Positions 1,245 through 56,524 of a stretch of DNA of 64,000 bases are shown here, piece after piece. The translations under genes and the position numbers were made by a program. Every line of letters begins with the position of its first letter. Positions within the stretch are counted from its first letter, which is position 1. The notes under the pieces were generated by a model that was given only the letters and a program-made list of their open reading frames with translations, made no database searches and was not told where the DNA came from. Location: positions 25,221 to 89,220 of IMG/VR virus record IMGVR_UViG_3300015371_000008; one strand, 5' to 3'. This stretch comes from a virus.

Positions 1245-1275
1245 CCCGGTCGCTCACGGGTACACTCATTTAGTA
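1245..1275 (-). promoter_or_regulatory. Degenerate CTAAATG box plus GAGCGAC hairpin
   Basis: CTAAATGAGTGTA then CCCG-TGAGCGAC-CGGG. Confidence 0.5.
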
Positions 1276-1572
1276 TGACCGCTCGTTGCGGAATCTGGCA
1301 AGGACGTCAGCCTCCATCGCTGCCGCGTTCGCTCTCATGACCTGCACCAACGCTTCACAGATCTCGCGTGCCTGACGCCGGGTGAAGGCGTGGCCTTCCT
1401 CGTCTGAACGGGCGGCGTCCCACCTCTGCACCACCCCCGTAGCGTCCCTGATTTCGACGCTGGGGCGGGTCAGGCGGATGGCGTGCCGGTGGATACGGAA
1501 GGGCCGGGATGGGCGCCACCGGGTGCGTTCCAGGGCCGCAGACAGGGCGTCGTGGAGGTCGTACGGGTTCAG
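1270..1572 (-). CDS. Hypothetical protein, probable CTG start
   Basis: 100-aa open frame (LNPYDLHDALSAALERTRW...) not in the ORF track; GAGGAGGAG RBS; CTGA overlap with the upstream stop. Confidence 0.5.
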   Translation of the reverse strand: MNPYDLHDALSAALERTRWRPSRPFRIHRHAIRLTRPSVEIRDATGVVQRWDAARSDEEGHAFTRRQAREICEALVQVMRANAAAMEADVLARFRNERSY

Positions 1573-1829
1573 GATCGCTCCTCCTCTTCTGCGGTCAGTG
1601 GGCCGGTCGGGTGCGCCTCCGCCGTAGTGGCTTCATCGGAGCAGGCCCAGACGGCGAGCATCGCCGGGAGGGTGGAGTCGTAGGAGTTGACGCCCACCAC
1701 GTCGCCGGTGGGACGCAGGCGGCACACGACGGCCAGGGCTGGGGCGTAGAGCAGGTCGGCGAACGCCGCCACCACGATGTCGATGGCGGCGTTAGACGGC
1801 ATTTCGGGCATGGGTATAGCAGGGCTCAC
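1569..1829 (-). CDS. Hypothetical protein
   Basis: GTG start with GGAG RBS downstream of a promoter/leader cassette. Confidence 0.5.
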   Translation of the reverse strand: MSPAIPMPEMPSNAAIDIVVAAFADLLYAPALAVVCRLRPTGDVVGVNSYDSTLPAMLAVWACSDEATTAEAHPTGPLTAEEEERS

Positions 1830-1848
1830 AGGGGGTCTCCAAAGGTAT

Positions 1849-1903
1849 GCCCGGGTCGCTCTACCGGGCCGGTCGGACCCCTCAATTCTACAATCATTTA
1901 GCG
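1849..1903 (-). promoter_or_regulatory. CTAAATG-box promoter plus leader hairpin
   Basis: CGCTAAATGATTG-TAGAAT; GCCCGG-TAGAGCGAC-CCGGGC. Confidence 0.65.
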
Positions 1904-1920
1904 GATCGGGTGTGGCTTTG

Positions 1921-2637
1921 TCATATCGGCACACCCCAGCCCTGAAACAGCGTCGCCGTGTAGGTGAGCCGGACCTGCCCCGCCCGTCCGGCAGCGCCCG
2001 CCAAGGTGCCCGAGTTGGTGCCGCCCGCCCCGCCACCACCACCGCCAGGGCCGGATGCTGGAGTTGTCGCGTTGTTGGACCCCTGAGTGCCGCCGGTACC
2101 ACCAGGCCCACCGCCGGTGACTGCCGTCGCACCCGCGCCTCCGGCGCCGCTGCTCGTTGACGCGTTACTCCCCGCGTTGCCAACGGCGGCGGTACCAGCG
2201 GAACCTCCTCCACCTCCACCGCCGCCCCAGGAGGAGTTGCCCGCACCGCCCGCACCGCCGTTGAAATGCGTGCCTGTCGCCGTGCCGGTGCCGCCTGCAC
2301 CGCCCGCACCCGCCGCAGCGGAAGCGCCTCCGCTGCCGCCGTGTCCCGTCACCGTGACGGACGTGCCCGTGAAAGTCGAGCTCCCTCCGGAGCCGCCGGT
2401 CGCCTGGGCTACGCCGGTGCCGCCCGCACCGACCGTGTAGGAGTAGCCGGTGCCGGGCGAGACCGCCACGCCGGTCACCTTGGCGTACTCGCCGCCGCCG
2501 CCTCCTCCGCCGTTCTTGGACGTGGACGCGCCACCGCCCGCGCCGCCGCCGCCCCAGCATTCGACGTCAACGCTGGTGACCCCGGATGGGCAGGTCCACG
2601 TAGATGTGCCCGCCGTGGTGAACGTGTCGGTCGCCAT
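1921..2637 (-). CDS. Glycine-rich domain protein (phage minor tail-type)
   Basis: TWTCPSGVTSVDVECWGGGGAGGG and Gly-rich repeats typical of phage Gly-rich minor tail proteins; end of a structural cluster. Confidence 0.75.
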   Translation of the reverse strand: MATDTFTTAGTSTWTCPSGVTSVDVECWGGGGAGGGASTSKNGGGGGGGEYAKVTGVAVSPGTGYSYTVGAGGTGVAQATGGSGGSSTFTGTSVTVTGHGGSGGASAAAGAGGAGGTGTATGTHFNGGAGGAGNSSWGGGGGGGGSAGTAAVGNAGSNASTSSGAGGAGATAVTGGGPGGTGGTQGSNNATTPASGPGGGGGGAGGTNSGTLAGAAGRAGQVRLTYTATLFQGWGVPI

Positions 2638-3125
2638 CAGCAGAGAATCTGCACTACTAGGTCCGCCCCGGCCACGGTGCTCCCAATTTGATCTATGTCC
2701 ACGGTGAAGTAGGCCCCATCGGCGATCGTCGTCGTGTTCATGTTCGTGACCTTGCCGGAGGTGTTTCCGCTGATCGCGATCGTCGGCCGGTTGCCCTGCG
2801 TAGAGAAGATCGTGGTGCCGTTGACGTTGATGTCCACGATGATCGCGGCGCCCGTGGGGGCCGTGCCGACACTCGCGCGTACGCCCTTGATGTCGAGGGT
2901 GGCGGTGGTGTCGTTGTAGATCCGGAACGTCCCGGCGCCCGTGGTCAGAGTGCCAGCGCGGGAGAACGGGAACAGAATCCCCGCCTCGACAAGGTGTTCC
3001 GCACCTGCACTGTTACGCGTCCACAGCACCGCATTGGGCCTGGCGAATACGGCGCACCATCCGGACGGCGGATTGCCCGGACTGGCTTGCTCCGGCAGCG
3101 CCACCGCGCTCGCGAACTTCGGCAT
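2637..3125 (-). CDS. Phage minor tail/structural protein
   Basis: Beta-rich ASVGTAPTGAAIIVDINVNG...TVDIDQIGSTVAGADL domain; translationally coupled in the structural cluster. Confidence 0.65.
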   Translation of the reverse strand: MPKFASAVALPEQASPGNPPSGWCAVFARPNAVLWTRNSAGAEHLVEAGILFPFSRAGTLTTGAGTFRIYNDTTATLDIKGVRASVGTAPTGAAIIVDINVNGTTIFSTQGNRPTIAISGNTSGKVTNMNTTTIADGAYFTVDIDQIGSTVAGADLVVQILC

Positions 3126-3325
3126 CAGACGTCCTTGGTTTCGAGCCCCTCCGGGCGCCAGCCGACTCCGTGACAGTGATCACACTGCACGAGGCGTTGT
3201 GCGACGGCCAGGGCGCGCAGCCGGTGCGGGAACGGACGTGGCTCGTCGGTGGAGGTGGAGTAGCACGGCTCCCCTGGCTCGGCCAGGCAGCAGGAGCAGG
3301 TCGCCTCCAGCGGATCCATGTTCAC
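3125..3325 (-). CDS. Small phage zinc-finger protein
   Basis: CSCCLAEPGEPC...HRLR and CDHC motifs; GTGA-coupled start. Confidence 0.55.
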   Translation of the reverse strand: MNMDPLEATCSCCLAEPGEPCYSTSTDEPRPFPHRLRALAVAQRLVQCDHCHGVGWRPEGLETKDV

Positions 3326-4524: not shown

Positions 4525-4532
4525 CCTGCCCC

Positions 4533-6818: not shown

Positions 6819-6841
6819 GGATACACCTCCTGGTCGAGCCA

Positions 6842-6902
6842 GCCGGGTCGCTCAACCGGCCAGCACGTTACAACACCCGATTGTACAGTCATTTGGCGTC
6901 AA
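6842..6902 (-). promoter_or_regulatory. Variant box promoter plus leader hairpin
   Basis: CGCCAAATGACTG-TACAAT; GCCGG-TTGAGCGAC-CCGGC. Confidence 0.65.
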
Positions 6903-8250: not shown

Positions 8251-8276
8251 GGTGGTCTCCTTTTGGCGGCGTCGCT

Positions 8277-8552
8277 CTAGCCGCTTTCGTCGATTCTGGT
8301 GGGCAGTTCGGATTGTATGGAGCGGTAGTGCGGGCTCGGTTGCTCGCGTGGTGGCGGCGGTTTGGTCACTTCTTCCAGGTAGGCGTTGACTCGGGCGTAG
8401 ATGTAGTCGAGCAGGGCTTTGGCTTCGACTGTGTTGACGCCTTCTCCTAGGTGGAGCCTGACCTGGTTCGTCCAGTCGAAGCTGATCACTAGGCGGAAGC
8501 GGTCGAGTTGAAGAGTCGGAGGTCGCCTACCTTGGGGTTGTTGTGGAGCCAT
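8277..8552 (-). CDS. Hypothetical protein
   Basis: ORF in operon orientation. Confidence 0.45.
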   Translation of the reverse strand: MAPQQPQGRRPPTLQLDRFRLVISFDWTNQVRLHLGEGVNTVEAKALLDYIYARVNAYLEEVTKPPPPREQPSPHYRSIQSELPTRIDESG

Positions 8553-11690: not shown

Positions 11691-11745
11691 GTTGGGTCGC
11701 TCCCCAACACCACTCAATGTACAGGCGTTTAGCGTCTGCGGCTAG
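11691..11745 (-). promoter_or_regulatory. Variant box promoter plus leader hairpin
   Basis: CGCTAAACGCCTG-TACATT; GTTGGG-GAGCGA-CCCAAC. Confidence 0.65.
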
Positions 11746-12741: not shown

Positions 12742-12806
12742 GGTGGATGCTCGCTTTCTCGGGTTCTCCTGGCGTCGGGTCGCTCAACCGACGCGTTCCT
12801 ACGGGT

Positions 12807-13987: not shown

Positions 13988-14047
13988 GGGTGTCGGGTCG
14001 CTCTCCAACACCCTTCCAACGTACACCCATTTAGCATCTACGTCCAG
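13988..14047 (-). promoter_or_regulatory. CTAAATG-box promoter plus leader hairpin
   Basis: TGGACG-17-TACGTT; GGGTGTTGG-AGAGCGAC-CCGACACCC. Confidence 0.75.
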
Positions 14048-16009: not shown

Positions 16010-16024
16010 GTTCTGCTCCTGTAC

Positions 16025-16077
16025 GTTGGTCGCTCTCCAACACCACCAACGTACAGTCATTTAGCGTCTCAGGTCAA
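16025..16077 (-). promoter_or_regulatory. CTAAATG-box promoter plus leader hairpin
   Basis: TTGACC-18-TACGTT; GTTGG-AGAGCGA-CCAAC. Confidence 0.8.
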
Positions 16078-19784: not shown

Positions 19785-19835
19785 GGGTTCGGGTCGCTCT
19801 CAACCCCTTCAGTGTACATCCATTTAGCGTCTTTG
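19785..19835 (-). promoter_or_regulatory. CTAAATG-box promoter (no clear -35) plus leader
   Basis: CGCTAAATGGATG-TACACT; GAGAGCGAC. Confidence 0.7.
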
Positions 19836-20231: not shown

Positions 20232-20270
20232 GTCGCTCTTCAAGCCATGTCAGGCTACATGCATTTAGTG
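20232..20270 (-). promoter_or_regulatory. CTAAATG-box promoter plus leader
   Basis: CACTAAATGCATG-TAGCCT; AAGAGCGAC. Confidence 0.6.
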
Positions 20271-20881: not shown

Positions 20882-20936
20882 GTGTTGGTCGCTCTCCAAC
20901 ACTCCAAAGATACAGTCATTTAGCGTCTCGGGTCAA
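20882..20936 (-). promoter_or_regulatory. CTAAATG-box promoter plus leader hairpin
   Basis: TTGACC-18-TATCTT; GTGTTGG-AGAGCGA-CCAACAC. Confidence 0.8.
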
Positions 20937-21577
20937 GGGGTTTTGACGAGGTCGAAGAACTCGCTGCGCATCGCCACACTGTCCCGGAACGAGCCGCGCA
21001 GGTGCGACGTCACCATGGCCGCGCCGACCGCGCGGGCTCCCCGCAGCGTCATGCAGGAGTGCGCTGACCGGATCACGCACGCCGCCCCCTCGGTGTCGAG
21101 GTTGCGGACGATCGCGTCCACGATCTGATCGCCGAGGCGTTCCTGCATCTGCGGCCGGGCCGCGTACTCCTGCACGATCCGGGCCAGCTTCGACAGGCCG
21201 ACCACGCGGGCGCCCGGCGCTGGAACGTAGCCGACGGCGGCCGTGCCGGTGAAGGCGAGGAGGTGGTGTTCGCAGATTGAGGTGAACGCGATACCCGGCA
21301 CGATGATCATGCCGGGGTTGTTCGACGGCGGCGGGAATGTCCGGGCGAAGTGCCGGTCCGGGTCGGCCCGAGTTCCGGCCGTCAGCTCGACCAGGGCGCG
21401 CACGAACCGGCCCGGCGTCTCCTCGGTGCCGTCGTCGTCGCACGGCATCCCCAGCGCCCGCAGCATCGCGCGGGCATGCATGACGGCGACGTTGAAGTCC
21501 CCGGCCGCTTCCGGGTCCGTCTCGATGTAGCCGACCGGGTCCGGCAACCCGTACGTGTAGATCTCTTCTACGGCCAT
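20933..21577 (-). CDS. folE: GTP cyclohydrolase I
   Basis: ETPGR, SICEHHLLAF, VVGLSKLARIV, RPQMQERL, HSCMTLRG. Confidence 0.96.
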   Translation of the reverse strand: MAVEEIYTYGLPDPVGYIETDPEAAGDFNVAVMHARAMLRALGMPCDDDGTEETPGRFVRALVELTAGTRADPDRHFARTFPPPSNNPGMIIVPGIAFTSICEHHLLAFTGTAAVGYVPAPGARVVGLSKLARIVQEYAARPQMQERLGDQIVDAIVRNLDTEGAACVIRSAHSCMTLRGARAVGAAMVTSHLRGSFRDSVAMRSEFFDLVKTP

Positions 21578-22314
21578 CAGCGCCCCCGCTCGTCTCCCCA
21601 GAGCAGCACATGCATGCGATGGGTGTAGTTGAACCGGTAGAACAGCGCCTGCTCTACGGTGTTCCTGGTGGTGACGGCCAGCACTTCGGCGCTCCGCCCC
21701 TCCGGCATGATCCAGACGCGTTCGGCCGGGATGTCCAGGTCAGTGACGTAGGCGGCGACCGCATCGACGTCAGAGGCGATACGGCATACCCACTTGAAGA
21801 CGGCTTTGCCCGTGTCGCGGAACGCGGTCAGCACCTCGGGCCGGATCCGCTTCTCCTCGCTCATCCCGGCGTGCGCCAACTTGGGGCTCACGTTGAACTG
21901 GCTTACGCAGGCAACCGTGTAGGCGTCGGGGGTGATGGTGCCGTTCGTCTCCACCTCCACCCGTTTGCCGAGCCGCTTCAGCCCGTCCAGCAGGCTGCGC
22001 CATCCCTCCTGCTGCTGGTGCAGTAGCGGTTCACCGCCGGTGATGACGACCATGTCGGCGCCGTGCTGCTCCACTTCGGCCAGGATCCCGGCGACCGGCG
22101 CCCGCGTCAGCTCCTCGCGCAGGTTGTAGCGGTCGGCGTTCCAGGTGTATTGGGTATCGCACCAGCCGCAGGACAGGTTGCAGCCGCCAGTGCGGACGAA
22201 CGACGCCGTACGGCCCGCCGACGCTCCTTCGCCTTGCCAGGTTGGGCCGAAGCATTCGGCGATCACCAGGGATTCGTCTGTGCTGAACAGCTCAACCGGG
22301 GGGGTGTCGGTCAT
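21577..22314 (-). CDS. queE: 7-carboxy-7-deazaguanine synthase (radical SAM)
   Basis: GPTWQGEG, FVRTGGCNLSCGWCDT, VITGGEPLL, VETNGT, VSPKL, WIMPEG. Confidence 0.95.
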   Translation of the reverse strand: MTDTPPVELFSTDESLVIAECFGPTWQGEGASAGRTASFVRTGGCNLSCGWCDTQYTWNADRYNLREELTRAPVAGILAEVEQHGADMVVITGGEPLLHQQQEGWRSLLDGLKRLGKRVEVETNGTITPDAYTVACVSQFNVSPKLAHAGMSEEKRIRPEVLTAFRDTGKAVFKWVCRIASDVDAVAAYVTDLDIPAERVWIMPEGRSAEVLAVTTRNTVEQALFYRFNYTHRMHVLLWGDERGR

Positions 22315-22817
22315 GCGCTCTCCCGTAGGGGTTGGGTGGCTCGGGACCACACCTCGCGCACGGTGACGCGGGGGGCGGGCGCCTCCCACTCTGCCGCGTT
22401 GACGTGGGTCTCCGTCACCACAACGCGCGCAATGTGGGTGCCGTCCGGCGGTTCCGGCGGCAGCCACATGACGGCCCGGTCGGCGATCATCTCCGCGACC
22501 GCCTCCACCGTCGGCCAGTCGGCGCCGGGCCAGTCGTAGCCGAACCGGAACACCTTGCAGCCGTGCTCCAGCAGGATCTTGGCCAGCGGATCCTGATTGC
22601 CGAGCATGGCGCCGTGGTCAAGGTTGGTGTCGATCCAGGCGCGCATGTGCGCCTTGAAGCCGCCGAACTCCACGATCGTGCCGTAGCCGTCCAGTTCGGG
22701 GGCGGACACCGTTACCGTGGCCCACCAGGAGTGGCCGTGCAGGTTGGTGCACTTGTCGCCGAGTAGCGGCAGCCGGTGGGCCGCTTCGAAATTATGACGA
22801 ACGGAAATGGAGCGCAT
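22311..22817 (-). CDS. queD: 6-carboxy-5,6,7,8-tetrahydropterin synthase
   Basis: FEAAHRL, CTNLHGHSW, LDHG, PTVE, VTET. Confidence 0.93.
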   Translation of the reverse strand: MRSISVRHNFEAAHRLPLLGDKCTNLHGHSWWATVTVSAPELDGYGTIVEFGGFKAHMRAWIDTNLDHGAMLGNQDPLAKILLEHGCKVFRFGYDWPGADWPTVEAVAEMIADRAVMWLPPEPPDGTHIARVVVTETHVNAAEWEAPAPRVTVREVWSRATQPLRESA

Positions 22818-22861
22818 CCCCGGATCGTGGCGGGGATGCGCTCCTTGTGTCGCGGCCTGGG

Positions 22862-22981
22862 TCAGTCCAGGTTGCGGGACAGCCAGCGGTCGTATTCCGT
22901 TTCGCGGGCTGCCTGCTCCGTCTTCTCTTCGCAGGCCGGGGTGCAGACGAAGTGGCCGCAGTCAGAGCACATACTGTTCAT
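22862..22981 (-). CDS. Cys-rich microprotein (39 aa)
   Basis: MNSMCSDCGHFVCTPAC; GGGAG RBS. Confidence 0.45.
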   Translation of the reverse strand: MNSMCSDCGHFVCTPACEEKTEQAARETEYDRWLSRNLD

Positions 22982-23022
22982 GAATTTCTCCCTGGGGGGG
23001 TCGCAGGTTAGCGGTTGGGGGG

Positions 23023-23439
23023 TTAGGCGGCGCACTTGTCGGCGTCGCGGCAGAAGTGCTGGGCGGGGCCGCAGATGCGGGCGGCTTCGCGGATCGTCTT
23101 CGGGCTCCAGTAGCAGTCCCGCTCCACGTAGATCGGGACGGGCAGGCCGTACCTGGCCCGGCCCACCGTCTGCTCCAGGTCGCGCAGGTCGAAGTAGCAC
23201 AGCTCGGCACCCTGCGGGTTACCGGCCAGTCGGACGTAGCCGAATACTTCGCCGGTGGTGTCGAAGTCGTCGGCGAACTCGGTCACCCACCAGTCGCCTG
23301 CGGCGCCGAAGTAGTGGACGTGGACGGTGGCGTCCAGCCCCTTGCCTTCCTGGGCGTAGAGCTTCGGGTATTTGGCGAGTTCGCGGGCGGTGGGGTAGAA
23401 GCGGTGGCCGCGAAGGCGCCGGTTCTTCTCGATGAACAT
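23023..23439 (-). CDS. DUF2958-family protein
   Basis: DWWVTE..FGYV..AELCYFDLRDLE..GLP..VERDCYW pattern. Confidence 0.7.
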   Translation of the reverse strand: MFIEKNRRLRGHRFYPTARELAKYPKLYAQEGKGLDATVHVHYFGAAGDWWVTEFADDFDTTGEVFGYVRLAGNPQGAELCYFDLRDLEQTVGRARYGLPVPIYVERDCYWSPKTIREAARICGPAQHFCRDADKCAA

Positions 23440-23497
23440 CTGTTCTCCTGTGCGTCGCTCAAGGTGGGGGCCCCGGATCCCGGGGCCCATCGGCCGG

Positions 23498-23632
23498 TCA
23501 GAACATGCATCCCAGGCGGGCGACGACGATCTCCCAGGCCCACTCGCGGAAGGCGGGGACGAAGATCAGGGCGGCGATGTGGGCGACGAACAGCGTGACG
23601 CCGATAACGAAGGGGAGGTCGCTGCGCTTCAT
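23498..23632 (-). CDS. Small membrane protein (44 aa)
   Basis: AGGAG RBS after a promoter cassette; one TM helix. Confidence 0.55.
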   Translation of the reverse strand: MKRSDLPFVIGVTLFVAHIAALIFVPAFREWAWEIVVARLGCMF

Positions 23633-23644
23633 GATCTTCTCCTG

Positions 23645-23704
23645 GGGGTGTCGGTCGCTCTTTCCGATACCCCAAAGATACAGTCATTTAGCGCCTCAGG
23701 TCAA
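23645..23704 (-). promoter_or_regulatory. CTAAATG-box promoter plus leader hairpin
   Basis: TTGACC-18-TATCTT; GGGGTATCGG-AAAGAGCGA-CCGACACCCC. Confidence 0.8.
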
Positions 23705-24567
23705 GGGCCGTAGCCCATCGCGTTCATCACCGCGTACACCTCGCCCAGCCGGGCCGGACTCGTCGTCACGACGTTCCAGTGCAGCCGGTTCCAGAACTCG
23801 CGTGCCGGTTCGGTGAAGTCGATGCCGTCCGGATACGTCGCCTCCACCTGCCGCCGGTAGCCCCGGGCGGCGAACGCCACATACCGGTACAGGCAGGCCC
23901 AGCAGCGTCCGCAGTGGCCCGGCATGTCGGCGAAGCAGGAGCGGGCGGCCAAGGCGTCCTCCAGCCAGCCCCGGGCGGCCCACCATGACACGCAGTCGGC
24001 CTTGGACATGCCGATCAGTGGGGAGGACAGGCGGAAGTCGAAGCCGTTCGCGGTGGCCATGTGCTGCATGGTGGACGCCCACCGGAACGACTTGTCGCCG
24101 CCGACGATCGGTGTCTCCAGGTAGTTGCCGCCCAGGTGGCCGAACCAGACTTCGCCCCACCAGCCGTGAGCGTGCGCCCATTCCAGCAGCCGCCACACGA
24201 TGATCGAATTGCGGCCGATCTGGAAGTCTCCGACGGCGGTCCAGTCGTCGCCCACCTCCAGCATGTGCAGGCGGCCCTCAGTCAGCCGTAGCGCGGCTTC
24301 CCGGTCGCGGCGGGCGTACGGCACGCCGGTGGCCGCCATGACCGCCTCTACGGGCAATCCAGCGGCGCGGGCCATCCGGTAGCAGGTGGAGGAGTCCAGG
24401 CCGCCGGACACCGGGATGATGATCCGGAAACGCGGGTCGTCACGGTCGGCGTGCGGCAGCATCTGCCGCCGGAACGCGGTGTCGTCGCGACCCAGCCGCC
24501 ACACCGCGCCCGGGTCGCCGCCGTCCAGCGCCGTCATCTCTTCGACTGCGTCGCCGGGCAGGTTCAC
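23701..24567 (-). CDS. queC: 7-cyano-7-deazaguanine synthase QueC-like PP-loop ATPase
   Basis: SGGLDS PP-loop, GRN, SPLIGMSKAD, SC..HCGRCWAC Zn site; context with queD/queE/folE. Confidence 0.85.
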   Translation of the reverse strand: MNLPGDAVEEMTALDGGDPGAVWRLGRDDTAFRRQMLPHADRDDPRFRIIIPVSGGLDSSTCYRMARAAGLPVEAVMAATGVPYARRDREAALRLTEGRLHMLEVGDDWTAVGDFQIGRNSIIVWRLLEWAHAHGWWGEVWFGHLGGNYLETPIVGGDKSFRWASTMQHMATANGFDFRLSSPLIGMSKADCVSWWAARGWLEDALAARSCFADMPGHCGRCWACLYRYVAFAARGYRRQVEATYPDGIDFTEPAREFWNRLHWNVVTTSPARLGEVYAVMNAMGYGP

Positions 24568-25511
24568 GCTGCCGCCTCCTGTCGTGTGCGCTGCACGACC
24601 AGGTCCACGATCAGGTCGAAGTCGCCCTCCGATCCAACCGCGAGGTAGATCTTGGGGCCGTTGAAGTGGATTCCGGGCGGTGTCGGTACGTAACGGTGGA
24701 CGGCCAGGTGGTCGGCGTAGTTCATCCACGACAACAGTGCGGAGGAGGAGGTCCAGTCGCGTTCGGCCCGGCCCAGCTCCTTGCCGCGCATGCCGACGCG
24801 GGCGAAGCCAGGGTTGGCCAGAGCGACGGGATCGCCGCCATAGGCGCGCACCAGACTGGCGGAGGGGCGTCTAACTCCCCTTTTGATGTCGTCGGGGTGG
24901 CGCACGCACACCCATCGACCTCGCCCGCTATCGAAAAGGGTGATGGAGCCGTTGCGACTGCCCTGGGACCAGAAGGATGAGTCCACGCTGTAGAAGGGCA
25001 GCAGATCGGGGTAGGGCGGCCGGGTCATGCCGAGTCCGTGCAGGACGGCGCCGTGCGCTCGTGCGATCTTGTGGGCGCGGATGAGCCACTGCATCATCGC
25101 CTTGCCCCGGGCGTTGACGGCGACGCCGCCGCCGAGGGCGACGAACGGATGCGTCGCGCACCACCGTTCCAGTTCCGACCATGGCGAGCCGACGTGGAAG
25201 ATCGGGATGATGTAGGTGGCGTCGCCCACCATCTGCTCCAGTTCCAGGGTGTTGCGGCCGGACGCGGCCGGATCCCCGATGACGTCCAGTGTCATGGCGC
25301 AGTTGACGTACGGGCCGTATACCTGCAACCAGGTTGCATACCCCTTCAGCGAGATCGTCTTGCCTGTGGTGTAGGCGGTGAACGCCCCCGAGTCGGCCAT
25401 GAAATCCACCTCCACGCCCCGTTCCCGGGCCCGGCGGACCAGCTTGCCCAGGTCCGTCTTGGCGAAGTAGGCGAACGAGCCGAGGATGGTGACGCGGCGT
25501 TCAGGCTGCAC
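24564..25511 (-). CDS. TGT-fold (DpdA-like) DNA guanine transglycosylase candidate
   Basis: ADSGAF, LDVIGD, PIFH, VALGG, HGLG, YSVDSSFW motifs of the TGT-like barrel; sits in a preQ0 biosynthesis cluster. Confidence 0.75.
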   Translation of the reverse strand: MQPERRVTILGSFAYFAKTDLGKLVRRARERGVEVDFMADSGAFTAYTTGKTISLKGYATWLQVYGPYVNCAMTLDVIGDPAASGRNTLELEQMVGDATYIIPIFHVGSPWSELERWCATHPFVALGGGVAVNARGKAMMQWLIRAHKIARAHGAVLHGLGMTRPPYPDLLPFYSVDSSFWSQGSRNGSITLFDSGRGRWVCVRHPDDIKRGVRRPSASLVRAYGGDPVALANPGFARVGMRGKELGRAERDWTSSSALLSWMNYADHLAVHRYVPTPPGIHFNGPKIYLAVGSEGDFDLIVDLVVQRTRQEAAA

Positions 25512-29900: not shown

Positions 29901-29976
29901 CCGGTGTCGCTCAACCCGGTGGATCCCCGTCTGTTGTGTTAACTCAGAACGTACAGTCATTTAGCGGCTAGCGCAA
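29901..29976 (-). promoter_or_regulatory. CTAAATG-box promoter plus leader hairpin
   Basis: TTGCGC-17-TACGTT; CCGG-GTTGAGCGACA-CCGG. Confidence 0.75.
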
Positions 29977-30869: not shown

Positions 30870-30898
30870 GATCTTCTCCTAGGTTGTCGCTCTTGCGC

Positions 30899-31460: not shown

Positions 31461-31511
31461 GGTTGTCGCTCTCAACACAACCTACTGTACACCCATTTAG
31501 CGTTACGTCAA
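31461..31511 (-). promoter_or_regulatory. CTAAATG-box promoter plus leader hairpin
   Basis: TTGACG-16-TACAGT; GGTTGT..GAGAGCG-ACAACC. Confidence 0.8.
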
Positions 31512-33921: not shown

Positions 33922-34028
33922 GTCGCTCACCGAGACGACGGCCGGGGATGGTGGGACTCGCCTACGGCGGTCCTAGATTCGTGGGTATCAAACACAACCA
34001 TTGTGTCAGTCATTTAGCGTGTGGTCAA
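33922..34028 (-). promoter_or_regulatory. CTAAATG-box promoter with long leader
   Basis: TTGACC-17-CACAAT; GAGCGAC at ~33922. Confidence 0.65.
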
Positions 34029-34089
34029 GAATGGGAACGGCCCCCGCCGGGGAGTGGCGGGGGCCGTTCGATCTGGAGGCCGGTGGCGG

Positions 34090-34731: not shown

Positions 34732-34744
34732 CTGTTTCTCCTGT

Positions 34745-34796
34745 GATTGTCGCTCCGAACACAACCAGCGATACATCCATTTAGCGCGTACGTCAA
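34745..34796 (-). promoter_or_regulatory. CTAAATG-box promoter plus leader
   Basis: TTGACG-17-TATCGC; GGAGCGAC. Confidence 0.7.
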
Positions 34797-35557: not shown

Positions 35558-35591
35558 CTGGCTACTCCTGTGGTTGTTGTCGCTCTGGAGT

Positions 35592-36057: not shown

Positions 36058-36108
36058 CTTGTCGCTCCGAACACAACCAACGGTACATCCATTTAGCGCG
36101 TACGGCAA
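36058..36108 (-). promoter_or_regulatory. CTAAATG-box promoter plus leader
   Basis: TTGCCG-17-TACCGT; GGAGCGAC. Confidence 0.75.
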
Positions 36109-36567: not shown

Positions 36568-36621
36568 GATTTCCTCCTGATGACGTGTCGCTCGTTGAAC
36601 GTCATTACAGACCTGATAGGG

Positions 36622-41024: not shown

Positions 41025-41081
41025 GGTGTCGCTCCTCACCGGTTGTCCACCAAAAGTACAATCATTTAGCGTTAGCTTCAA
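41025..41081 (-). promoter_or_regulatory. CTAAATG-box promoter of the SNF2 gene
   Basis: TTGAAG-17-TACTTT; GGTG-AGGAGCGA-CACC directly before ATG. Confidence 0.75.
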
Positions 41082-41576: not shown

Positions 41577-41655
41577 CCCGGAGTCGCTCATCCCGGGGGG
41601 GTTCCGCTGAACTTTCCCTACCCTCCCATTGTACAGGCATTTAGCGTGTAGTCAA
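41577..41655 (-). promoter_or_regulatory. CTAAATG-box promoter plus leader hairpin
   Basis: TTGACT-16-TACAAT; CCCGG-GATGAGCGACT-CCGGG. Confidence 0.8.
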
Positions 41656-43299: not shown

Positions 43300-43334
43300 C
43301 TGGACTCTCCTCCTTTGTGCTGTCGCTCTTGCGT

Positions 43335-43549: not shown

Positions 43550-43587
43550 GGATGCTCCCCTCTCTGTGCGATGTCGCTCTCTCGCGT

Positions 43588-43806: not shown

Positions 43807-43836
43807 GATTTCCTCCTGTGGTTGTCGCTCTTGCGT

Positions 43837-43878
43837 GCCCCGCCCGGTCGCGAACCGGGAGCCGACTACGGTCGGGGC
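43837..43878 (-). ncRNA. tRNA-like three-way-junction element 6
   Basis: Near-identical to element 3, loop TTCGCGA. Confidence 0.65.
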
Positions 43879-43885
43879 TGGTGAA

Positions 43886-44518
43886 TCAGTTGGCGGGATT
43901 GGCCCGCTCGTAGGCCAGGACGATCCGGGCCACAGCCGAGGCGTTGCCGCGAATCTCGACCATCCAGTACTCCTCGCCGAACAGGCGACGCCGCTTCACG
44001 TCGGCGTTCAGGCCCTCCTCCCGGGCCGCCCTGCGCAGCGCACTGGCGCGGCACCTGCCGTCGTCATCGGAGCCGGTCTCCACGATGTGGTTAAGCGTGG
44101 TCGGGTTGACGATGTAGTCGGCGATCTGCTGTGCCGTGAACGACTCGCCGGAGGCCGCCTTCGGCTGCTCGTCCTGCTCACCCGCCTTGACGACCTCCGC
44201 GATGATGTCGCCGAGCGACCGGGGACCGGGAACGAACAGCTCCAGGGACTTGGCCACCTTCAGATGGTCGCTGCCCATCTGGCCGCAGTTGCAGCGCCAG
44301 ACGTCGGCCTTGATGGCGGGGGTGGTGACGTTCGGGTTGATGCTGTTGCCGTAGTCGTCGATCGTGCCGATCTCCGGCAGCCACGAGTACTCCCGGTCAA
44401 CCCCGCACCGGGTCAGGTGCTCGCGCTCGGCGGGCTCCAGGGACGTGTAACCCCACCGGCCCGGCGTGGAGGCGTTGGCGACGAACCACTTCCAGGTGGC
44501 CGCAACGTGATCCATCAT
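43886..44518 (-). CDS. Hypothetical protein
   Basis: AGGAG RBS after a three-way-junction element. Confidence 0.65.
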   Translation of the reverse strand: MMDHVAATWKWFVANASTPGRWGYTSLEPAEREHLTRCGVDREYSWLPEIGTIDDYGNSINPNVTTPAIKADVWRCNCGQMGSDHLKVAKSLELFVPGPRSLGDIIAEVVKAGEQDEQPKAASGESFTAQQIADYIVNPTTLNHIVETGSDDDGRCRASALRRAAREEGLNADVKRRRLFGEEYWMVEIRGNASAVARIVLAYERANPAN

Positions 44519-44548
44519 GATCTTCTCCTGACGTTGTCGCTCGAACGT

Positions 44549-44591
44549 GCCCCCGTCGGTCGTGAACCGGCGCCCTCTACAGGGACGGGGC
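44549..44591 (-). ncRNA. tRNA-like three-way-junction element 7
   Basis: CCCT-GTAG-AGGG arm; loop TTCACGA. Confidence 0.6.
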
Positions 44592-44599
44592 TGGGTGGG

Positions 44600-44734
44600 T
44601 CAGAGTTCGTAGCAGCGATCTTTGTAGCAGGGGCCACAGATCTTCACCTCGACGGACTCGCCGTTGTCGGCGGGGACGGGGTCGATGACTTTCTCGACGT
44701 CGGGCCGGTCGTGTTCGCACCACTGACAGATCAT
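44600..44734 (-). CDS. Zn-ribbon microprotein (44 aa)
   Basis: MICQWC...ICGPC; first gene after a promoter cassette. Confidence 0.55.
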   Translation of the reverse strand: MICQWCEHDRPDVEKVIDPVPADNGESVEVKICGPCYKDRCYEL

Positions 44735-44754
44735 GATCTTCTCCTGTGATTGCC

Positions 44755-44801
44755 GTCGCTCTCAACACAACCTACTGTACACCCATTTAGCGGCACGTCA
44801 A
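44755..44801 (-). promoter_or_regulatory. CTAAATG-box promoter plus leader
   Basis: TTGACG-16-TACAGT; nearly identical to 31461-31511. Confidence 0.8.
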
Positions 44802-45956: not shown

Positions 45957-46015
45957 GCCGGGGTCGCTCTCCCGGCAATCCCACCGAGCGTACATCCATT
46001 TAGCATCGTGCGCTA
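45957..46015 (-). promoter_or_regulatory. CTAAATG-box promoter plus leader hairpin
   Basis: TGCTAAATGGATG-TACGCT; GCCGGG-AGAGCGAC-CCCGGC. Confidence 0.7.
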
Positions 46016-48850: not shown

Positions 48851-48906
48851 GGTGTCGGTCGCTCTCCAACACCTCAGAATCTACAGTCATTTAGCGCGTG
48901 GCGCAA
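48851..48906 (-). promoter_or_regulatory. CTAAATG-box promoter plus leader hairpin
   Basis: TTGCGC-17-TAGATT; GGTGTTGG-AGAGCGA-CCGACACC. Confidence 0.8.
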
Positions 48907-50107: not shown

Positions 50108-50143
50108 GGTGATCTCTCCTGGTGTTGTCGTCGCTCTCGACGT

Positions 50144-50190
50144 GCCCCCCGCCGGTCTTGAACCGGCGCCGCCTTTCGCGGGCGGGGGGC
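50144..50190 (-). ncRNA. tRNA-like three-way-junction element 10
   Basis: GCCCCCC/GGGGGGC; GCCGG-TTCAAGA-CCGGC. Confidence 0.65.
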
Positions 50191-50197
50191 GGGTGGA

Positions 50198-50395
50198 TCA
50201 GGAAACGATGACGGGGTACAGCCGGTCATCGGGGCTTTCGGAGTCGTACAGGACAGTGACGGCCTTGGCGTCGGCGTAGCCGTTGTGGAGCAGGTGGGCC
50301 AGGTGGGTCTGGGCGCCGTCGGGGGTGGTGCAGATGTCCTGCACCTTGTTGCCGTTGTAGGTGTACTCGACGGCGGGGGTGTGCGTGAACGCCAT
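50198..50395 (-). CDS. Small hypothetical protein
   Basis: First gene after a promoter cassette. Confidence 0.55.
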   Translation of the reverse strand: MAFTHTPAVEYTYNGNKVQDICTTPDGAQTHLAHLLHNGYADAKAVTVLYDSESPDDRLYPVIVS

Positions 50396-50411: not shown

Positions 50412-50463
50412 GTCGCTCTTTTGTTGTACGCCAAACGTACAGTCATTTAGCGCGGAGGGTCAA
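50412..50463 (-). promoter_or_regulatory. CTAAATG-box promoter plus leader
   Basis: TTGACC-18-TACGTT; AAGAGCGAC. Confidence 0.8.
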
Positions 50464-50482: not shown

Positions 50483-51160
50483 TCAGAACCGGAACAGCAT
50501 CCCCTTCAGCAGCGCGACGTGAGCGGCGAAAACGCGTCCGCCGAAGCGGCTCCGTACGTCCCTCTCCAGCGCCGCGTAACTGTCGCAGCGCACCCACTCC
50601 GCGCGGCGGGCGTCGTCGCCGCCCTGCACCGGCACCATCTCGTCCAGCCAGAAGCAGACGGGCTTGGTCACCATCCACGCCTCATCGCTGGCGCGGGGAT
50701 CCGGCACGTACCGGGCCGGATGCGGGACACGCGCCCGTGCGATCCTGTCCAGGTCCACCCCGGCCTCTTCCTTCGCCTCGCGTACGGCCGCCTCCTCGCC
50801 GGTCTCGCCCGGCTCCAGCGTGCCGCCGGGGATCGCCCAGCCGTGGCCGTCGTCCCGCTCGACCAGCACCATGTGCCGGACCCGCTTGGGGAACAGACCC
50901 CACCGCTTGATCACCTTGTAGGTGAAGATGAGAGCGTCGGCCGCATTCTTCGGACCCCAGTGGCCCAGCTCGTTACGGCCCCGGGCGAAGCGGGTCTTCT
51001 CGCCAGGGTTGACCGGCCGTCCGTCGATGACGTCGAACGGGATCCACGCCTCCGCCTGCCGCTCCTGCCAGTCGATCGTGGTCGGGTCCATGATCGGGTC
51101 GGCCCAGTCGGCACCGGACGCGATCCCGGCCAGGACGCTCGGATGTGTGAACTCCAGCAT
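50483..51160 (-). CDS. Nudix hydrolase, NUDT9-like ADP-ribose pyrophosphatase
   Basis: GRPVNP..GRNELGHWGP, Nudix box GGTLEPGETGEEAAVREAKEEAG, YVPDPRASDEAWM, GGDDA. Confidence 0.88.
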   Translation of the reverse strand: MLEFTHPSVLAGIASGADWADPIMDPTTIDWQERQAEAWIPFDVIDGRPVNPGEKTRFARGRNELGHWGPKNAADALIFTYKVIKRWGLFPKRVRHMVLVERDDGHGWAIPGGTLEPGETGEEAAVREAKEEAGVDLDRIARARVPHPARYVPDPRASDEAWMVTKPVCFWLDEMVPVQGGDDARRAEWVRCDSYAALERDVRSRFGGRVFAAHVALLKGMLFRF

Positions 51161-51194
51161 GATCTCCTCCTTTGGTTGCGGTCGCTCATCGCGT

Positions 51195-52462: not shown

Positions 52463-52492
52463 GATGTCCTCCTAATGCTGTCGCTCTTGCGT

Positions 52493-53424: not shown

Positions 53425-53479
53425 GGTGTCGGTCGCTCCTAACACAACCAAAGGTACAGTCATTTAGTGCGATCGTCAA
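53425..53479 (-). promoter_or_regulatory. CTAAATG-box promoter plus leader hairpin
   Basis: TTGACG-17-TACCTT; GGAGCGAC. Confidence 0.8.
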
Positions 53480-54107: not shown

Positions 54108-54184
54108 GACGGTCTCCTCTGTGGCCGGTCGCTCAACGGCCAGGGTCGAGATGAAGAAGGCCGGGGGTGGACTGGCCGCCCCCG

Positions 54185-54546: not shown

Positions 54547-54562
54547 CGTTTGCTCCCTGGTC

Positions 54563-54613
54563 GTTGGTCGCTCTCAACACAACCAACAGTACACCCATTT
54601 AGCGTCACGTCAA
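54563..54613 (-). promoter_or_regulatory. CTAAATG-box promoter plus leader
   Basis: TTGACG-16-TACTGT; GTTG-AGAGCGAC-CAAC. Confidence 0.8.
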
Positions 54614-54739: not shown

Positions 54740-54810
54740 GATCTCGACCTTTCGATTGATTGGGTTGCTCTGAAGCCCGACCCCAGTGCGGGGCCGGGCC
54801 GGGTTGGGGG

Positions 54811-55185
54811 CTACGCCCACGCCACCGACATACTGCGGCCCTGGGCCCAGGTGGCGATGTCCTGGAGGACGTCCAGCCGGGCGGCCAGGTAGCCGGGCTC
54901 GACGCCGCACTCGATCCACACCATGCCGCCGCTGCCGGTGTCCTCCACCGTGGGGCGGCCGTGGGCGTCGTCGGTAGCGACGTCCAGCATGCCCTGGGCG
55001 ATGAGGATGCGGCCCAGGAAGTCCTGGGCGTCCACCACGCCCCCGTAGTAGTCGTCCTCGTGCGTGAAGCCGAGCAGGGCCAGGAGGCGGGCGGCGTTGG
55101 CGTTGGCCATGTTCAGCTCGGGGCTGTCGTCGGCGGTGGCGTAGTAGGTGCCGTGGTTGGCGGCGGCGCTGAAGGTGATCGACAT
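54811..55185 (-). CDS. Hypothetical phage protein
   Basis: ELNMANANAARLLALLG motif; after a promoter cassette. Confidence 0.7.
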   Translation of the reverse strand: MSITFSAAANHGTYYATADDSPELNMANANAARLLALLGFTHEDDYYGGVVDAQDFLGRILIAQGMLDVATDDAHGRPTVEDTGSGGMVWIECGVEPGYLAARLDVLQDIATWAQGRSMSVAWA

Positions 55186-55195
55186 CGGGGCTCCT

Positions 55196-55258
55196 GGGGG
55201 TGTCGGTCGCTCTTTCCGAACACCCGCCAATGTACAACCATTTAGCGCGTGACGTCAA
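55196..55258 (-). promoter_or_regulatory. Leftward CTAAATG-box promoter of the divergent pair
   Basis: TTGACG-18-TACATT; leader hairpin with AAAGAGCGA loop. Confidence 0.8.
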
Positions 55259-55294
55259 CGCGGAATCTGGAAGGAAATCGGCCGAGCCATCCGC

Positions 55295-55340
55295 TTGCCA
55301 GGCGACGCTAAATGAACGTACATTGGCGGGTGGAGCGACA
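55295..55340 (+). promoter_or_regulatory. Rightward CTAAATG-box promoter of the divergent pair
   Basis: TTGCCA-18-TACATT; GGAGCGAC then AGGAG. Confidence 0.8.
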
Positions 55341-55356
55341 ACGACAGGAGAACACC

Positions 55357-55659
55357 GTGGACCGCAGGCGCTACAACCACAGCGACCGACCCACCCCACA
55401 GGAACTCGCCGCCCACCGGCGGGCCGCCAAAGTCCAGGCGGAAGCGGCCCGGCACGGCCACGACGACGCCGCCGCTCAGCGGGCCCGGAGCATCCAGAAC
55501 GCCCGCGAGCTGCGTGACCAGATGGCCCAGACGTTCGCCACGCACCTGGGAACACTGGAGGAGATCTTTGAGAAAGAGGTCGCGAAGATCCGCGCCCAGG
55601 GGCCGGTCGGCTGCACCTGCACCTGGCCCGAATGCGTTACGAGCCGCGCGAACCTCTGA
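55357..55659 (+). CDS. Hypothetical protein
   Basis: GTG with AGGAG RBS after the rightward promoter cassette. Confidence 0.6.
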   Translation: MDRRRYNHSDRPTPQELAAHRRAAKVQAEAARHGHDDAAAQRARSIQNARELRDQMAQTFATHLGTLEEIFEKEVAKIRAQGPVGCTCTWPECVTSRANL

Positions 55660-55711
55660 CAACCCGCCGGGCCGGTGGACCCGGCCCGGCCCAACCCACA
55701 AGGAGAAGATC

Positions 55712-55873
55712 ATGGGTTACCTATTCACACTCGCCGGGTCCATCCTGACGCTCGTCGGCGTCACCGTCTGGACGATTACCGGCGAGCCCACCTCCACCGT
55801 GTTCGCGGGCGGGATCGTCTGCCTGCTCGGACTGGCCATGAGGATCAGGGAGAACAGGGGGAACGGACGATGA
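55712..55873 (+). CDS. Small membrane protein
   Basis: AAGGAG RBS; two TM helices. Confidence 0.6.
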   Translation: MGYLFTLAGSILTLVGVTVWTITGEPTSTVFAGGIVCLLGLAMRIRENRGNGR

Positions 55874-56448
55874 AGCGCATCCCGAACTGGAAGACATGGC
55901 CGGATCAGATATTCGCCTGCCCCGCCGGTGCCGTCGTCGGCGGCACGGCCGCCGCCGTCTTCGGTGACGTCATCGCCGAGGGGAACCTGCTGGTACGCAT
56001 CCTGGTGATCTGGGGGATCATCGGCGTCGCGATGATCCCCGGCGTGTTCATCTCCGCCCTGCTGCACCACCTGCGCCGACCGCTGCACCGGCGGCGACTA
56101 CGCGACCTGCCCCTGGTTCGGCGGGCGCATGAGCGGCTGCGACGACTGGGGGACGCTGTGGCCCGCAACGACAGGCCCGCGACTCCTGACACACCGCCGC
56201 AGCGGACAGGAGAGGCATCCGGCGAGATCTACTCGCGGGCGGAGGGCGAGATGCTTGCCCTGATGTTCGTTTGGTGCGGCCTGGTGTTGTCGGTGGCGCT
56301 GGGGGAGTTCGCCTGGTTGCTGGTGACCAAGACGTTGCAGGGGGCGGTCTTGGCGGGCGCTGGGGCGTCGCTGGGGGCGGTGGGCCTGGTCGTAGCGGGT
56401 GTTGCCGGTTCGGTCGTGTGGGTGATGAAGCGGACCCGCCGCCGCTGA
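55870..56448 (+). CDS. Membrane protein
   Basis: ATGA coupling; about four TM helices. Confidence 0.6.
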   Translation: MKRIPNWKTWPDQIFACPAGAVVGGTAAAVFGDVIAEGNLLVRILVIWGIIGVAMIPGVFISALLHHLRRPLHRRRLRDLPLVRRAHERLRRLGDAVARNDRPATPDTPPQRTGEASGEIYSRAEGEMLALMFVWCGLVLSVALGEFAWLLVTKTLQGAVLAGAGASLGAVGLVVAGVAGSVVWVMKRTRRR

Positions 56449-56469
56449 GGATTTTTCTGGGGAACCCCC

Positions 56470-56524
56470 TTGACCACGCGCTAAATGGATGTATATTCAG
56501 AGGTGTTGAGAGCGACACAACACC
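56470..56524 (+). promoter_or_regulatory. Rightward CTAAATG-box promoter plus leader hairpin
   Basis: TTGACC-16-TATATT; GGTGTTG-AGAGCGACA-CAACACC. Confidence 0.8.

Follow-up and report, generated by a model that had tools for sequence, protein, structure and literature searches.

The stretch of DNA considered here, hereafter the window, comprises 64,000 nucleotides (bases 25221-89220 of the 89.2-kb IMG/VR record IMGVR_UViG_3300015371_000008), and the feature under study within it is a heptamer, GAGCGAC, which recurs shortly upstream of the ribosome binding sites of many of its genes. The record has a G+C content of 67% and a rated completeness of 62%, such that 38% of the genome is missing, and it belongs to an uncultivated soil phage, the DNA of which recurs in soil and rhizosphere metagenomes. 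Nearly all genes run leftward as far as ca 55.3 kb of the window, and the 25 kb preceding the window contain an array of ~37 tRNA genes on the same strand as these leftward genes. Orphans make up the majority of the 127 open reading frames (ORFs); recognisable genes encode DnaB, SSB, a ParA/ParB-like pair, a SNF2 helicase, a 7-deazaguanine set (FolE, QueD, QueE, QueC and a TGT/DpdA-like protein), two NUDIX proteins, several helix-turn-helix (HTH) regulators (HTH_3, PadR, GntR/UTRA) and a head-decoration protein. Since the phage DnaB (L002:6031-7386; genome 24030-25385) shares 70-78% identity with the cellular DnaB of Nonomuraea, Planotetraspora, Microbispora and their relatives, the host is probably to be sought among the Streptosporangiales actinomycetes. 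The same identity suggests that the phage dnaB is a recently captured host gene, and it is the strongest pointer to the host.

The window contains 49 copies of GAGCGAC, whereas dinucleotide-preserving shuffles contain 20.4 ± 4.7 (shuffle maximum 33). The hexamer GAGCGA is not enriched by itself (60 copies against 56.5), the next letter being C in 49 of the 60. Within the window 45 copies are sense and four antisense, 43 copies lying on the - strand; the whole record has 65, with 55 on the - strand. The strand switch that an earlier reading of the sequence (the original prediction) had placed at 55.3 kb is real, because the two sense copies on the + strand (55333 and 56510) stand ahead of rightward genes that lie past the divergent promoters at 55.2-55.3 kb. 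Of the sense copies in the window, 40 lie in leaders, 3-17 nt 5' of the Shine-Dalgarno (SD) sequence and 14-28 nt 5' of the start codon, and every one of these belongs to a gene with an upstream intergenic gap; the remaining five, together with the four antisense copies, fall within genes at about the level expected by chance. A single strict rule applied across the record gives 44 leader copies. On the crude gene calls made in this analysis, the motif precedes 41 of the 85 genes with an upstream gap of at least 40 nt, as opposed to 0 of 42 tightly packed genes. The claim that it stands before nearly every first gene of a cassette was too broad, the proportion between 11 and 57 kb being ca 31 of 55.

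The heptamer is also close to invariant. Against the 44 exact leader copies of the phage record there are just 2-3 plausible one-mismatch variants in leader position, two of which, GAGCGGC and GAGCGAA, likewise lie in hairpin loops. The preference in the flanks is weak, with A at -1 in 68% of copies and C or A at +1, the usual extended form being A-GAGCGAC-C/A. The spacer of 6-15 nt between the motif and the SD is C/A-rich, with T in just 1-5 of 44 copies at each position. Searches against Rfam gave no match at the gathering threshold and no relevant one at E <= 0.5.

As had been predicted, three upstream contexts of the motif are found (Table 1): it is linked to promoters, linked to tRNAs or mini tRNA-like elements, or stands alone. 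The promoters are 27 near-identical units of sigma70 type, TTGAC-N16-18-TAnnnT, with a conserved (G)CTAAATGnnTG spacer, lying at window positions 1273-56494 and at genome 8686 and 11767; a simple sigma70 scan recovers five of them in 17.5 kb, where 1.2 are expected. All of the CTAAATG-box promoters that drive an mRNA (25 of 25) have the exact heptamer downstream, with 12-17 nt, and in most copies 12-13 nt, between the -10 hexamer and the motif. The box promoter at genome 8673-8686, which drives tRNA-Val directly, is without the leader motif, as is one further box promoter with no evident gene. The mini tRNA-like elements of the second context have no promoter. The motif lies downstream of nine of the 11 mini tRNA-like elements examined and of two true tRNAs, after a gap of 5-9 nt. 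In the third context, the stand-alone copies often lie downstream of a strong stem-loop, some of these terminator-like. In other words, since the motif follows mRNA promoters and promoterless tRNA-like elements and is absent behind the promoter of tRNA-Val, it tracks the start of a translated message and not the promoter.

The mini tRNA-like elements, about a dozen in all, lie between cistrons at window 30899-52540 (for example 43831-43900, 44543-44610 and 50137-50200). Each combines an acceptor stem with a single small hairpin, a T-arm whose loop reads TTCGNGA and a discriminator A, and is followed by CGCAA and then by the motif. Neither ARAGORN nor Rfam calls them, and from their sequence they resemble punctuation marks for cleavage by RNase P and RNase Z. 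The motif itself resembles the 3' half of a tRNA D-arm (AGAGC-R; A-GAGC-GAC), a likeness too short to weigh. Two tRNAs of the phage, both in L001, may be mentioned in this regard: tRNA-Ala (genome 19481-19554) contains TAGAGCGAC, made up of the 3' strand of the D-stem and the start of the anticodon stem, and the D-arm of tRNA-Tyr (genome 7799-7883) contains the complement GGTCGCTC.

Table 1. Copies of GAGCGAC upstream of genes in the window (window coordinates; stems given as 5' arm/3' arm).
Feature	Position	Strand	Motif	Upstream context	Stem	Other
Leader copy	1244..1261	-	1249-1255	promoter-linked	hairpin ACCCG/CGGGT	start codon 28 nt on
Leader copy	1849..1869	-	1855-1861	promoter-linked (distant)	hairpin GCCCGG/CCGGGC	
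Leader copy	6838..6864	-	6847-6853	25 nt past variant promoter	9-bp hairpin GCTGGCCGG/CCGGCTGGC	
Leader copy	8266..8284	-	8271-8277	stand-alone	hairpin GCGGC/GCCGC	
Leader copy	11691..11708	-	11696-11702	promoter-linked, CTAAACG variant box	hairpin GTTGGG/CCCAAC	
Leader copy	12772..12794	-	12779-12785	stand-alone	hairpin GCGTCGG/CCGACGC	start codon 37 nt on
Leader copy	13988..14013	-	13997-14003	promoter-linked	9-bp hairpin GGGTGTTGG/CCGACACCC	orthologous leader in L008 retains motif, stem altered
Leader copy	16023..16043	-	16029-16035	promoter-linked	hairpin GTGTTGG/CCAACGT	
Leader copy	19793..19799	-		promoter-linked	weak	
Leader copy	20232..20238	-		promoter-linked	stem-free	
Leader copy	20882..20902	-	20888-20894	promoter-linked	hairpin GTGTTGG/CCAACAC	
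Leader copy	23454..23460	-		stand-alone, directly 3' of G+C-rich stem-loop	no hairpin of its own	
Leader copy	23651..23667	-	23654-23660	promoter-linked	GGGGTATCGG/CCGACACCCC, one A-C mismatch	
Leader copy	29906..29912	-		promoter 36 nt upstream	bulged, 4 bp	
Leader copy	30886..30892	-		6 nt past mini tRNA-like element	no hairpin	
Leader copy	31461..31482	-	31465-31471	promoter-linked	GGTTG/CAACC, 12-nt loop	
Leader copy	33922..33928	-		~75 nt past box promoter	no clear hairpin	
Leader copy	34744..34767	-	34749-34755	promoter-linked	TGGTTG/CAATCA, large loop	
Leader copy	35579..35585	-		5 nt past mini tRNA-like element	no hairpin	
Leader copy	36061..36067	-		promoter-linked	weak	start codon 28 nt on
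Leader copy	36580..36605	-	36587-36593	stand-alone, past 15-bp stem-loop	hairpin ATGACGT/ACGTCAT	
Copy	41028..41034	-		past box promoter		ahead of SNF2-helicase gene; start codon assignment uncertain
Leader copy	41577..41597	-	41583-41589	promoter 39 nt upstream	hairpin CCCGGG/TCCGGG	
Leader copy	43322..43328	-		5 nt past mini tRNA-like element	no hairpin	
Leader copy	43573..43579	-		7 nt past mini tRNA-like element	4 bp, GCGA/TCGC	
Leader copy	43824..43830	-		5 nt past mini tRNA-like element	no hairpin	
Leader copy	44531..44548	-	44536-44542	past mini tRNA-like element	hairpin ACGTT/AACGT	
Leader copy	44748..44772	-	44755-44761	promoter-linked, -10 TACAGT ends 12 nt upstream	GGTTGT/GCAATC	
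Leader copy	45957..45976	-	45963-45969	promoter-linked	hairpin GCCGGG/CCCGGC	
Leader copy	48851..48873	-	48858-48864	promoter-linked	8-bp hairpin GGTGTTGG/CCGACACC	
Leader copy	50127..50141	-	50130-50136	past mini tRNA-like element	4 bp, GTCG/CGAC	
Leader copy	50412..50418	-		promoter-linked	stem-free	
Leader copy	51181..51187	-		6 nt past mini tRNA-like element	3 bp at most	
Leader copy	52480..52486	-		past variant tRNA-like element	no hairpin	
Leader copy	53426..53445	-	53432-53438	promoter-linked	GTGTT/GACAC	
Leader copy	54122..54142	-	54128-54134	stand-alone, past terminator-like stem-loop	hairpin TGGCCG/CGGCCA	
Leader copy	54562..54579	-	54567-54573	promoter-linked	TGTTG/CAACG	
Leader copy	55198..55225	-	55206-55212	last leftward promoter, TTGACG-18-TACATT	GGGTGTT/GACACCC	
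First rightward leader copy	55333..55339	+		past divergent promoter TTGCCA-18-TACATT	weak	
Rightward leader copy	56502..56524	+	56510-56516	promoter TTGACC-16-TATATT	hairpin GGTGTTG/CAACACC	

A stem of at least 5 bp that holds GAGCGA in its loop is present at 20 of the 40 leader copies in the window, and at a few more if one mismatch is allowed. In these hairpins the motif lies on the 3' side of a loop of 7-12 nt, closed by a stem of 5-9 bp of arbitrary sequence, the final C of the heptamer usually opening the 3' arm. The original prediction had counted about 35 such hairpins; where present they do exceed chance, but half of the copies lack one, and after tRNA-like elements the proportion falls to 2 of 10. 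Among the promoter-linked or stand-alone copies a stem score of at least 5 is reached by 21 of 34, against 7% of random genome positions. The seven stems named in that prediction are all present, and its claim that the stem sequence differs and yet stays paired holds where stems exist. The mean pairing of an arm with its own partner is 4.85, against 3.51 with the arms of other leaders, a value reached by 0 of 5000 permutations, and the excess persists after removal of the common GTGTTGG type. In an ungapped alignment of 27 hairpin copies, 65% of helix cells are paired (49% when shuffled), and the covariation score of 0.427 exceeds that of every one of 500 shuffles (0.180 ± 0.033). Both sides change at six of the seven pairs (46 cells), and pairing is seen in registers 0 and +1 only. 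Since the leader sites are paralogous, these counts show that arbitrary arms stay complementary, and do not describe an evolutionary history.

The same arrangement is found in relatives of the phage. A pattern scan of metagenome contigs returned mostly chance matches; within it, 11 contigs of high G+C, several of which share a sample, combine the promoter box of the phage with the exact heptamer and an SD, while their stems differ, and one relative contig of 13 kb has nine motif copies. Contigs of relatives, 11-13 kb long, were also recovered by a protein search. In two orthologous genes, at 66-69% amino-acid identity, the heptamer of the leader is retained, whereas the stem has another sequence and the loop another length. 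These observations bear on the possibility, which we regard as remote, that the motif is carried along passively in a promoter-leader cassette which is repeated and recombines, and is homogenised by duplication and gene conversion and not by selection on the heptamer, in the manner of the cassettes known as PeSL. Such a view takes its strength from the 27 promoter boxes, which share ~45 nt of near-identical sequence, often including GGTGTTGGA ahead of the motif, and from a layout of terminator, promoter and small ORF which resembles the PeSL-bounded modules (PMC4122927, PMC2839356). It does not explain, however, why the heptamer is just as invariant in tRNA-like-linked and stand-alone copies, where the flanks are unlike the promoter cassette, why the positions neighbouring the heptamer vary freely inside the cassettes, or why the motif is retained in relatives at 48-69% protein identity.

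The arrangement is, moreover, phage-specific. In four actinomycete genomes of 9-12 Mb, motif-SD-ATG arrangements number 13-29, no more than the 12-27 given by a reversed-pattern control, as compared with ~44 in the 89-kb phage record, and the idea of a host-type element was rejected for want of this enrichment. Pairing of the motif to rRNA was likewise rejected as unsupported, the 16S rRNA of Nonomuraea, Planotetraspora, Actinoallomurus and Streptomyces being without GUCGCUC; the best complement there is a 6-mer in a conserved, structured region, with one wobble match in three of the four species. Both results count against an explanation in which the leader is intrinsic and has no dedicated reader, the 5' stem acting as a stabiliser and the motif with its C/A-rich spacer as an enhancer or standby site through host ribosomal proteins or rRNA; for a general enhancer, it would be odd that the candidate host genomes do not use it. 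Nor would a pure stabiliser need an invariant loop, and the tRNA-like-linked copies are mostly stem-free. The fixed place of the motif just 5' of the SD, within reach of the bound 30S subunit, would suit such a leader, as would the strong depletion of T from the spacer, a stem that starts at about the predicted +1 and the failure to find a reader protein (see below). On balance we think this explanation unlikely.

It is also unlikely, in our estimation, that GAGCGAC is a signal at the level of DNA, be it a stoperator-like asymmetric site at which a DNA-binding regulator of the phage blocks or pauses RNA polymerase as each cassette begins, or part of a promoter for a polymerase other than that of the host, including one of the phage N4 hairpin type. 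Intergenic placement and an orientation locked to transcription are true also of the L5 stoperators (PMC3203893), several phage HTH regulators are encoded, and some stand-alone copies lie past terminator-like stem-loops, where a local start would be convenient; the tests of strand asymmetry described below do not favour RNA. A double-stranded site is nevertheless hard to reconcile with complementary variable arms, which it leaves unexplained, with loops of 7-12 nt, which make cruciform extrusion unlikely, with a spacing tied to the SD in three distinct upstream contexts, and with a tRNA-driving promoter that has no motif. Seven specified base pairs would in addition give poor specificity, with ~20 chance copies per 64 kb. 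As regards a promoter, no -10-like hexamer lies downstream of the motif at promoter spacing (TAnnnT in 0 of 65 copies, CAYnnT in 6 of 65), and the motif was rejected as a -35-like box on these counts; the Pfam matches listed, which cover 62% of the genome, include neither a phage RNA polymerase nor a sigma factor.

The reading that we favour, albeit tentatively, is that GAGCGAC is a cis-acting RNA leader operator near the 5' end of SD-led, mostly non-structural mRNAs, which a factor specified by the phage would read, and that the hairpin in addition shields this end. Action at the level of RNA as such appears quite probable from the sequence. Transcripts from the ~25 near-identical sigma70-type promoters would carry the motif at about +6 to +11, and because the -10 hexamer ends 12-13 nt ahead of the motif, the foot of the stem would roughly coincide with the predicted +1; behind a tRNA or mini tRNA-like element, tRNA-processing cleavage after the discriminator would leave the motif ~6 nt from the new 5' end. 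A single trans-acting factor, specified by the phage, would then read the invariant heptamer on ~45 messages and co-ordinate their translation, their stability or both, and where there is a 5'-terminal stem it would shield the end from 5'-end-dependent decay. We infer the existence of this reader, its nature and the direction of its effect; most likely it would be a sequence-specific RNA-binding protein not recognisable by sequence, a small RNA being possible. The post-transcriptional regulon of the original prediction is, to this extent, matched by the linkage to translated leaders, the locked orientation, the phage specificity, the conservation and the covarying stems, while tests for the RNA strand are neutral. 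Antitermination, one of the modes then suggested, is unlikely because every site is immediately followed by an SD and a separate promoter serves most of them.

Several points weigh against this reading. Interrupted stem positions are G-U in six cases and A-C in five, showing no preference for the RNA strand, and the fold energies of sense and antisense leaders are alike (-9.12 against -9.05 kcal/mol, Wilcoxon p about 1). Half of the copies, including eight of the 10 that are tRNA-like-linked, have no hairpin, from which it follows that display in a loop is not required. The start sites and processing sites rest on prediction. Among the matches listed for the 127 ORFs in Pfam and PHROGs there is no RNA-binding or RNase family, in a genome of which 38% is missing and whose genes are mostly orphans, such that the element-encoded RNA-binding protein originally envisaged could not be named; of its proposed candidates, the 'Rho-N-like' paralogs at 34090 and 34871 are helical proteins, 35% identical, with no family match, and those at 47882 and 36671 gave nothing informative. 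Finally, seven invariant positions with almost no degenerate copies are unusual for a protein-RNA site, and base pairing would be the better fit.

It is in this last regard that an RNA reader has to be considered, although we judge it improbable. The candidate is a 67-nt 'anti-leader' at genome 19301-19367 (-) in L001, which lies 5.9 kb ahead of the window with a degenerate tRNA on one side and tRNA-Pro on the other, and which tRNA processing is proposed to release; by kissing the leader loop and pairing with the SD it would reduce or abolish the translation of all the leadered genes. Its sequence, GGGTACTTCGGGG ... GCTCCGTGGTTGGTCGCTCC ... CCCCGAAGTACCC, has in its loop CUCC-N6-GGUCGCUC, the antisense of SD, spacer and motif. 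The predicted fold has a stem of 14 bp (z = -4.0), within which an inner hairpin, GUUGG-UCGCU-CCGAC, would place the anti-motif UCGCU in an apical loop, and the anti-SD lies six nt upstream of the anti-motif, in mirror image of the consensus leader. No other antisense copy of the motif has an anti-SD at leader spacing, no start codon follows the pseudo-SD on the + strand, and the near-absolute invariance of the heptamer fits base pairing. Predicted duplex energies with the anti-leader average -33.9 kcal/mol for motif leaders, -26.2 for other leaders and -21.6 for shuffled loops, an advantage that is built in, because the leaders share the 7-mer and the SD by construction. On the other side, antisense motif copies are not enriched (10 in the record, with ~14 expected per strand), the presence of a GGAG within 17 nt is not unusual for one copy among ten (estimated at ~0.09 per copy), the anti-leader could be the inverted fossil of a leader, and it would share a promoter type, and be co-transcribed, with its own targets. 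Among DNA contigs from four runs on genome 15001-35000, one run contains a relative that is ~3-8% divergent; two of its listed changes are near the 67-nt element and none inside it, cover there being inferred, and we draw no conclusion from this.

Were host tRNA-processing enzymes to excise the anti-leader, as a master antisense regulator whose CUCC covers the SD of ~45 early messages, which on the sequence we consider a doubtful proposition, the phage could throttle or shut off all of its leadered genes simultaneously, with the leaderless late genes exempt. By the same logic, the mini tRNA-like elements would generate new 5' ends that start with the motif. An anti-leader reader would be the most interesting outcome.

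Several further features of the phage genome may be noted. There is a possible second promoter class, CGCGAC-N19-CACnnT, at window 5316, 14700, 22854 and 26195 (-) and at genome 7002. ATG or GTG lies 6-10 nt downstream of these sites, none of which carries a GAGCGAC leader, and the class would yield leaderless messages, for example of the genes ending at 22817 and 26157. The GntR/UTRA (HutC-type) regulator at window 57135-57890 (-) adjoins the divergent promoter region; it is kept at 48% identity in the relative contig L030, where the divergent promoters have the same layout. QueE-like radical SAM, QueC-like and TGT/DpdA-like genes lie at window 20933-25400, with FolE and QueD at other places, and the 7-deazaguanine set suggests that the phage DNA is modified. 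The NUDIX protein at 50483-51160 has as nearest relatives the NUDT9-type ADP-ribose pyrophosphatases and the NUDT9-H domain of TRPM2 (E = 1e-17), and may have an anti-defence role; since it resembles these and not RppH, the idea that the 5' hairpins are connected with a phage RNA pyrophosphohydrolase was dropped. The 95-nt tRNA-Arg(tcg) that ARAGORN calls at window 59496-59590 (+), within a 921-aa ORF (58829-61594), is probably false.

Searches for relatives among known phages returned little. A DNA search of INPHARED found none among the catalogued phages, the sole match being 35 nt identical to an intergenic stretch of Streptomyces phage Mischief19, which corresponds to the terminator hairpin GAACGGCCCCCGCC...GGCGGGGGCCGTTC at window 34036-34070. 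A protein search against known phages gave distant helicase matches only, and a search of IMG/VR by pattern and by two proteins found no relatives.

A fixed loop on a stem of free sequence, read by an RNA-binding protein, is familiar from lambda N-boxB and from CsrA/RsmA. The boxB site has a 5-bp stem and a GNRA-like pentaloop, lies next to boxA at 1-2 sites per genome and serves antitermination, whereas the GAGCGAC loops are of 7-12 nt, the sites number ~45, directly before an SD and mostly with their own promoter, and half of them are stem-free. CsrA sites display GGA in a loop that overlaps the SD; the heptamer has no GGA, its SD lies outside the hairpin, and no CsrA family is among the Pfam matches listed for the 127 ORFs. 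The 5'-terminal stem-loop stabilisers, such as those of the E. coli ompA leader and of B. subtilis and SP82, have their stem ~0-4 nt from the 5' end and act independently of loop sequence. By promoter spacing the stem base of the present leaders would lie at about the predicted +1; their loop is invariant and the motif also occurs stem-free. In kissing antisense control (CopA/CopT, RNA I/RNA II) complementary loops of 5-7 nt are carried on hairpins, with one antisense RNA per target; the leader loop GAGCGA(C) and the apical UCGCU of the anti-leader are likewise complementary and both displayed in predicted loops, although here one candidate RNA would address ~45 targets.

The PeSL cassettes of T4-like phages consist of near-identical early promoters and stem-loops which bound small gene modules (PMC4122927, PMC2839356). 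Some of the 27 promoter boxes are preceded by stem-loops; the PeSL stem-loop, however, is a terminator upstream of the promoter with a proposed role in recombination, whereas the GAGCGAC hairpin lies downstream, in the leader, and has an invariant loop. The L5 stoperator is, like GAGCGAC, asymmetric, intergenic and oriented with transcription. It is bound as double-stranded DNA by the phage repressor, which blocks elongation; the present phage encodes HTH regulators, but the GAGCGAC site has just seven specified base pairs, and paired variable arms are not expected of a stoperator. The best precedent for a phage-wide post-transcriptional regulon is T4 RegA/RegB, phage proteins which act on the initiation regions of ~30+ early mRNAs and end the early programme (Uzan and Miller 2010, PMC3014915). 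The sites of RegA are rich in A+U, lack structure and overlap with the AUG, while RegB cleaves within the SD, in its GGAG, and structure prevents this cleavage (PMC3014915). A G+C-rich heptamer upstream of the SD, often looped, looks unlike either, and no RegA or RegB homologue was seen in the scans of the 127 ORFs.

To our knowledge, genome-wide start-associated motifs have been recognised in actinobacteriophages since 2011, beginning with the start-associated sequence (SAS) of Cluster K, and none has a demonstrated reader or mechanism. The SAS/ESAS of the Cluster K mycobacteriophages is the closest system described (PMC3203893). SAS occurs in 11-19 asymmetric copies per genome, in one orientation, before the start codons of non-structural genes, and is absent from the host (Pope et al. 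2011, PMC3203893), its function and its reader having been left open as 'RNA or protein' (PMC3203893). Many copies, a single orientation, non-structural genes and rarity in the host (for GAGCGAC, no excess in four actinomycete genomes) are thus common to SAS and GAGCGAC. SAS is, however, a 13-mer, GGGATAGGAGCCC, which includes the SD core and is placed 3-7 bp from the start (PMC3203893), whereas GAGCGAC does not include the SD and stands 14-28 nt ahead of the start; and ESAS consists of conserved 17-bp inverted repeats, departures in which do not support pairing (PMC3203893), whereas the arms around GAGCGAC are arbitrary and pair specifically with their own partner. Membership of the SAS family was rejected, since GGGATAGGAGCCC with two mismatches has three matches, none at a gene start, against 2.2 expected. 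Stoperators, PeSL, boxB, CsrA, 5' stabilisers and kissing antisense RNAs each share one property with the GAGCGAC element and fail others. The element is a phage-wide start-associated leader motif, and a cleaner case than SAS, in that an invariant heptamer, covarying stems of free sequence, three contexts, retention in relatives, absence from candidate hosts and one candidate RNA reader come together. If confirmed, it would show a large lytic actinophage co-ordinating ~45 separately transcribed or processed messages post-transcriptionally, and would offer a compact, portable leader module (promoter, 5' hairpin and SD) for expression in actinomycetes of high G+C.

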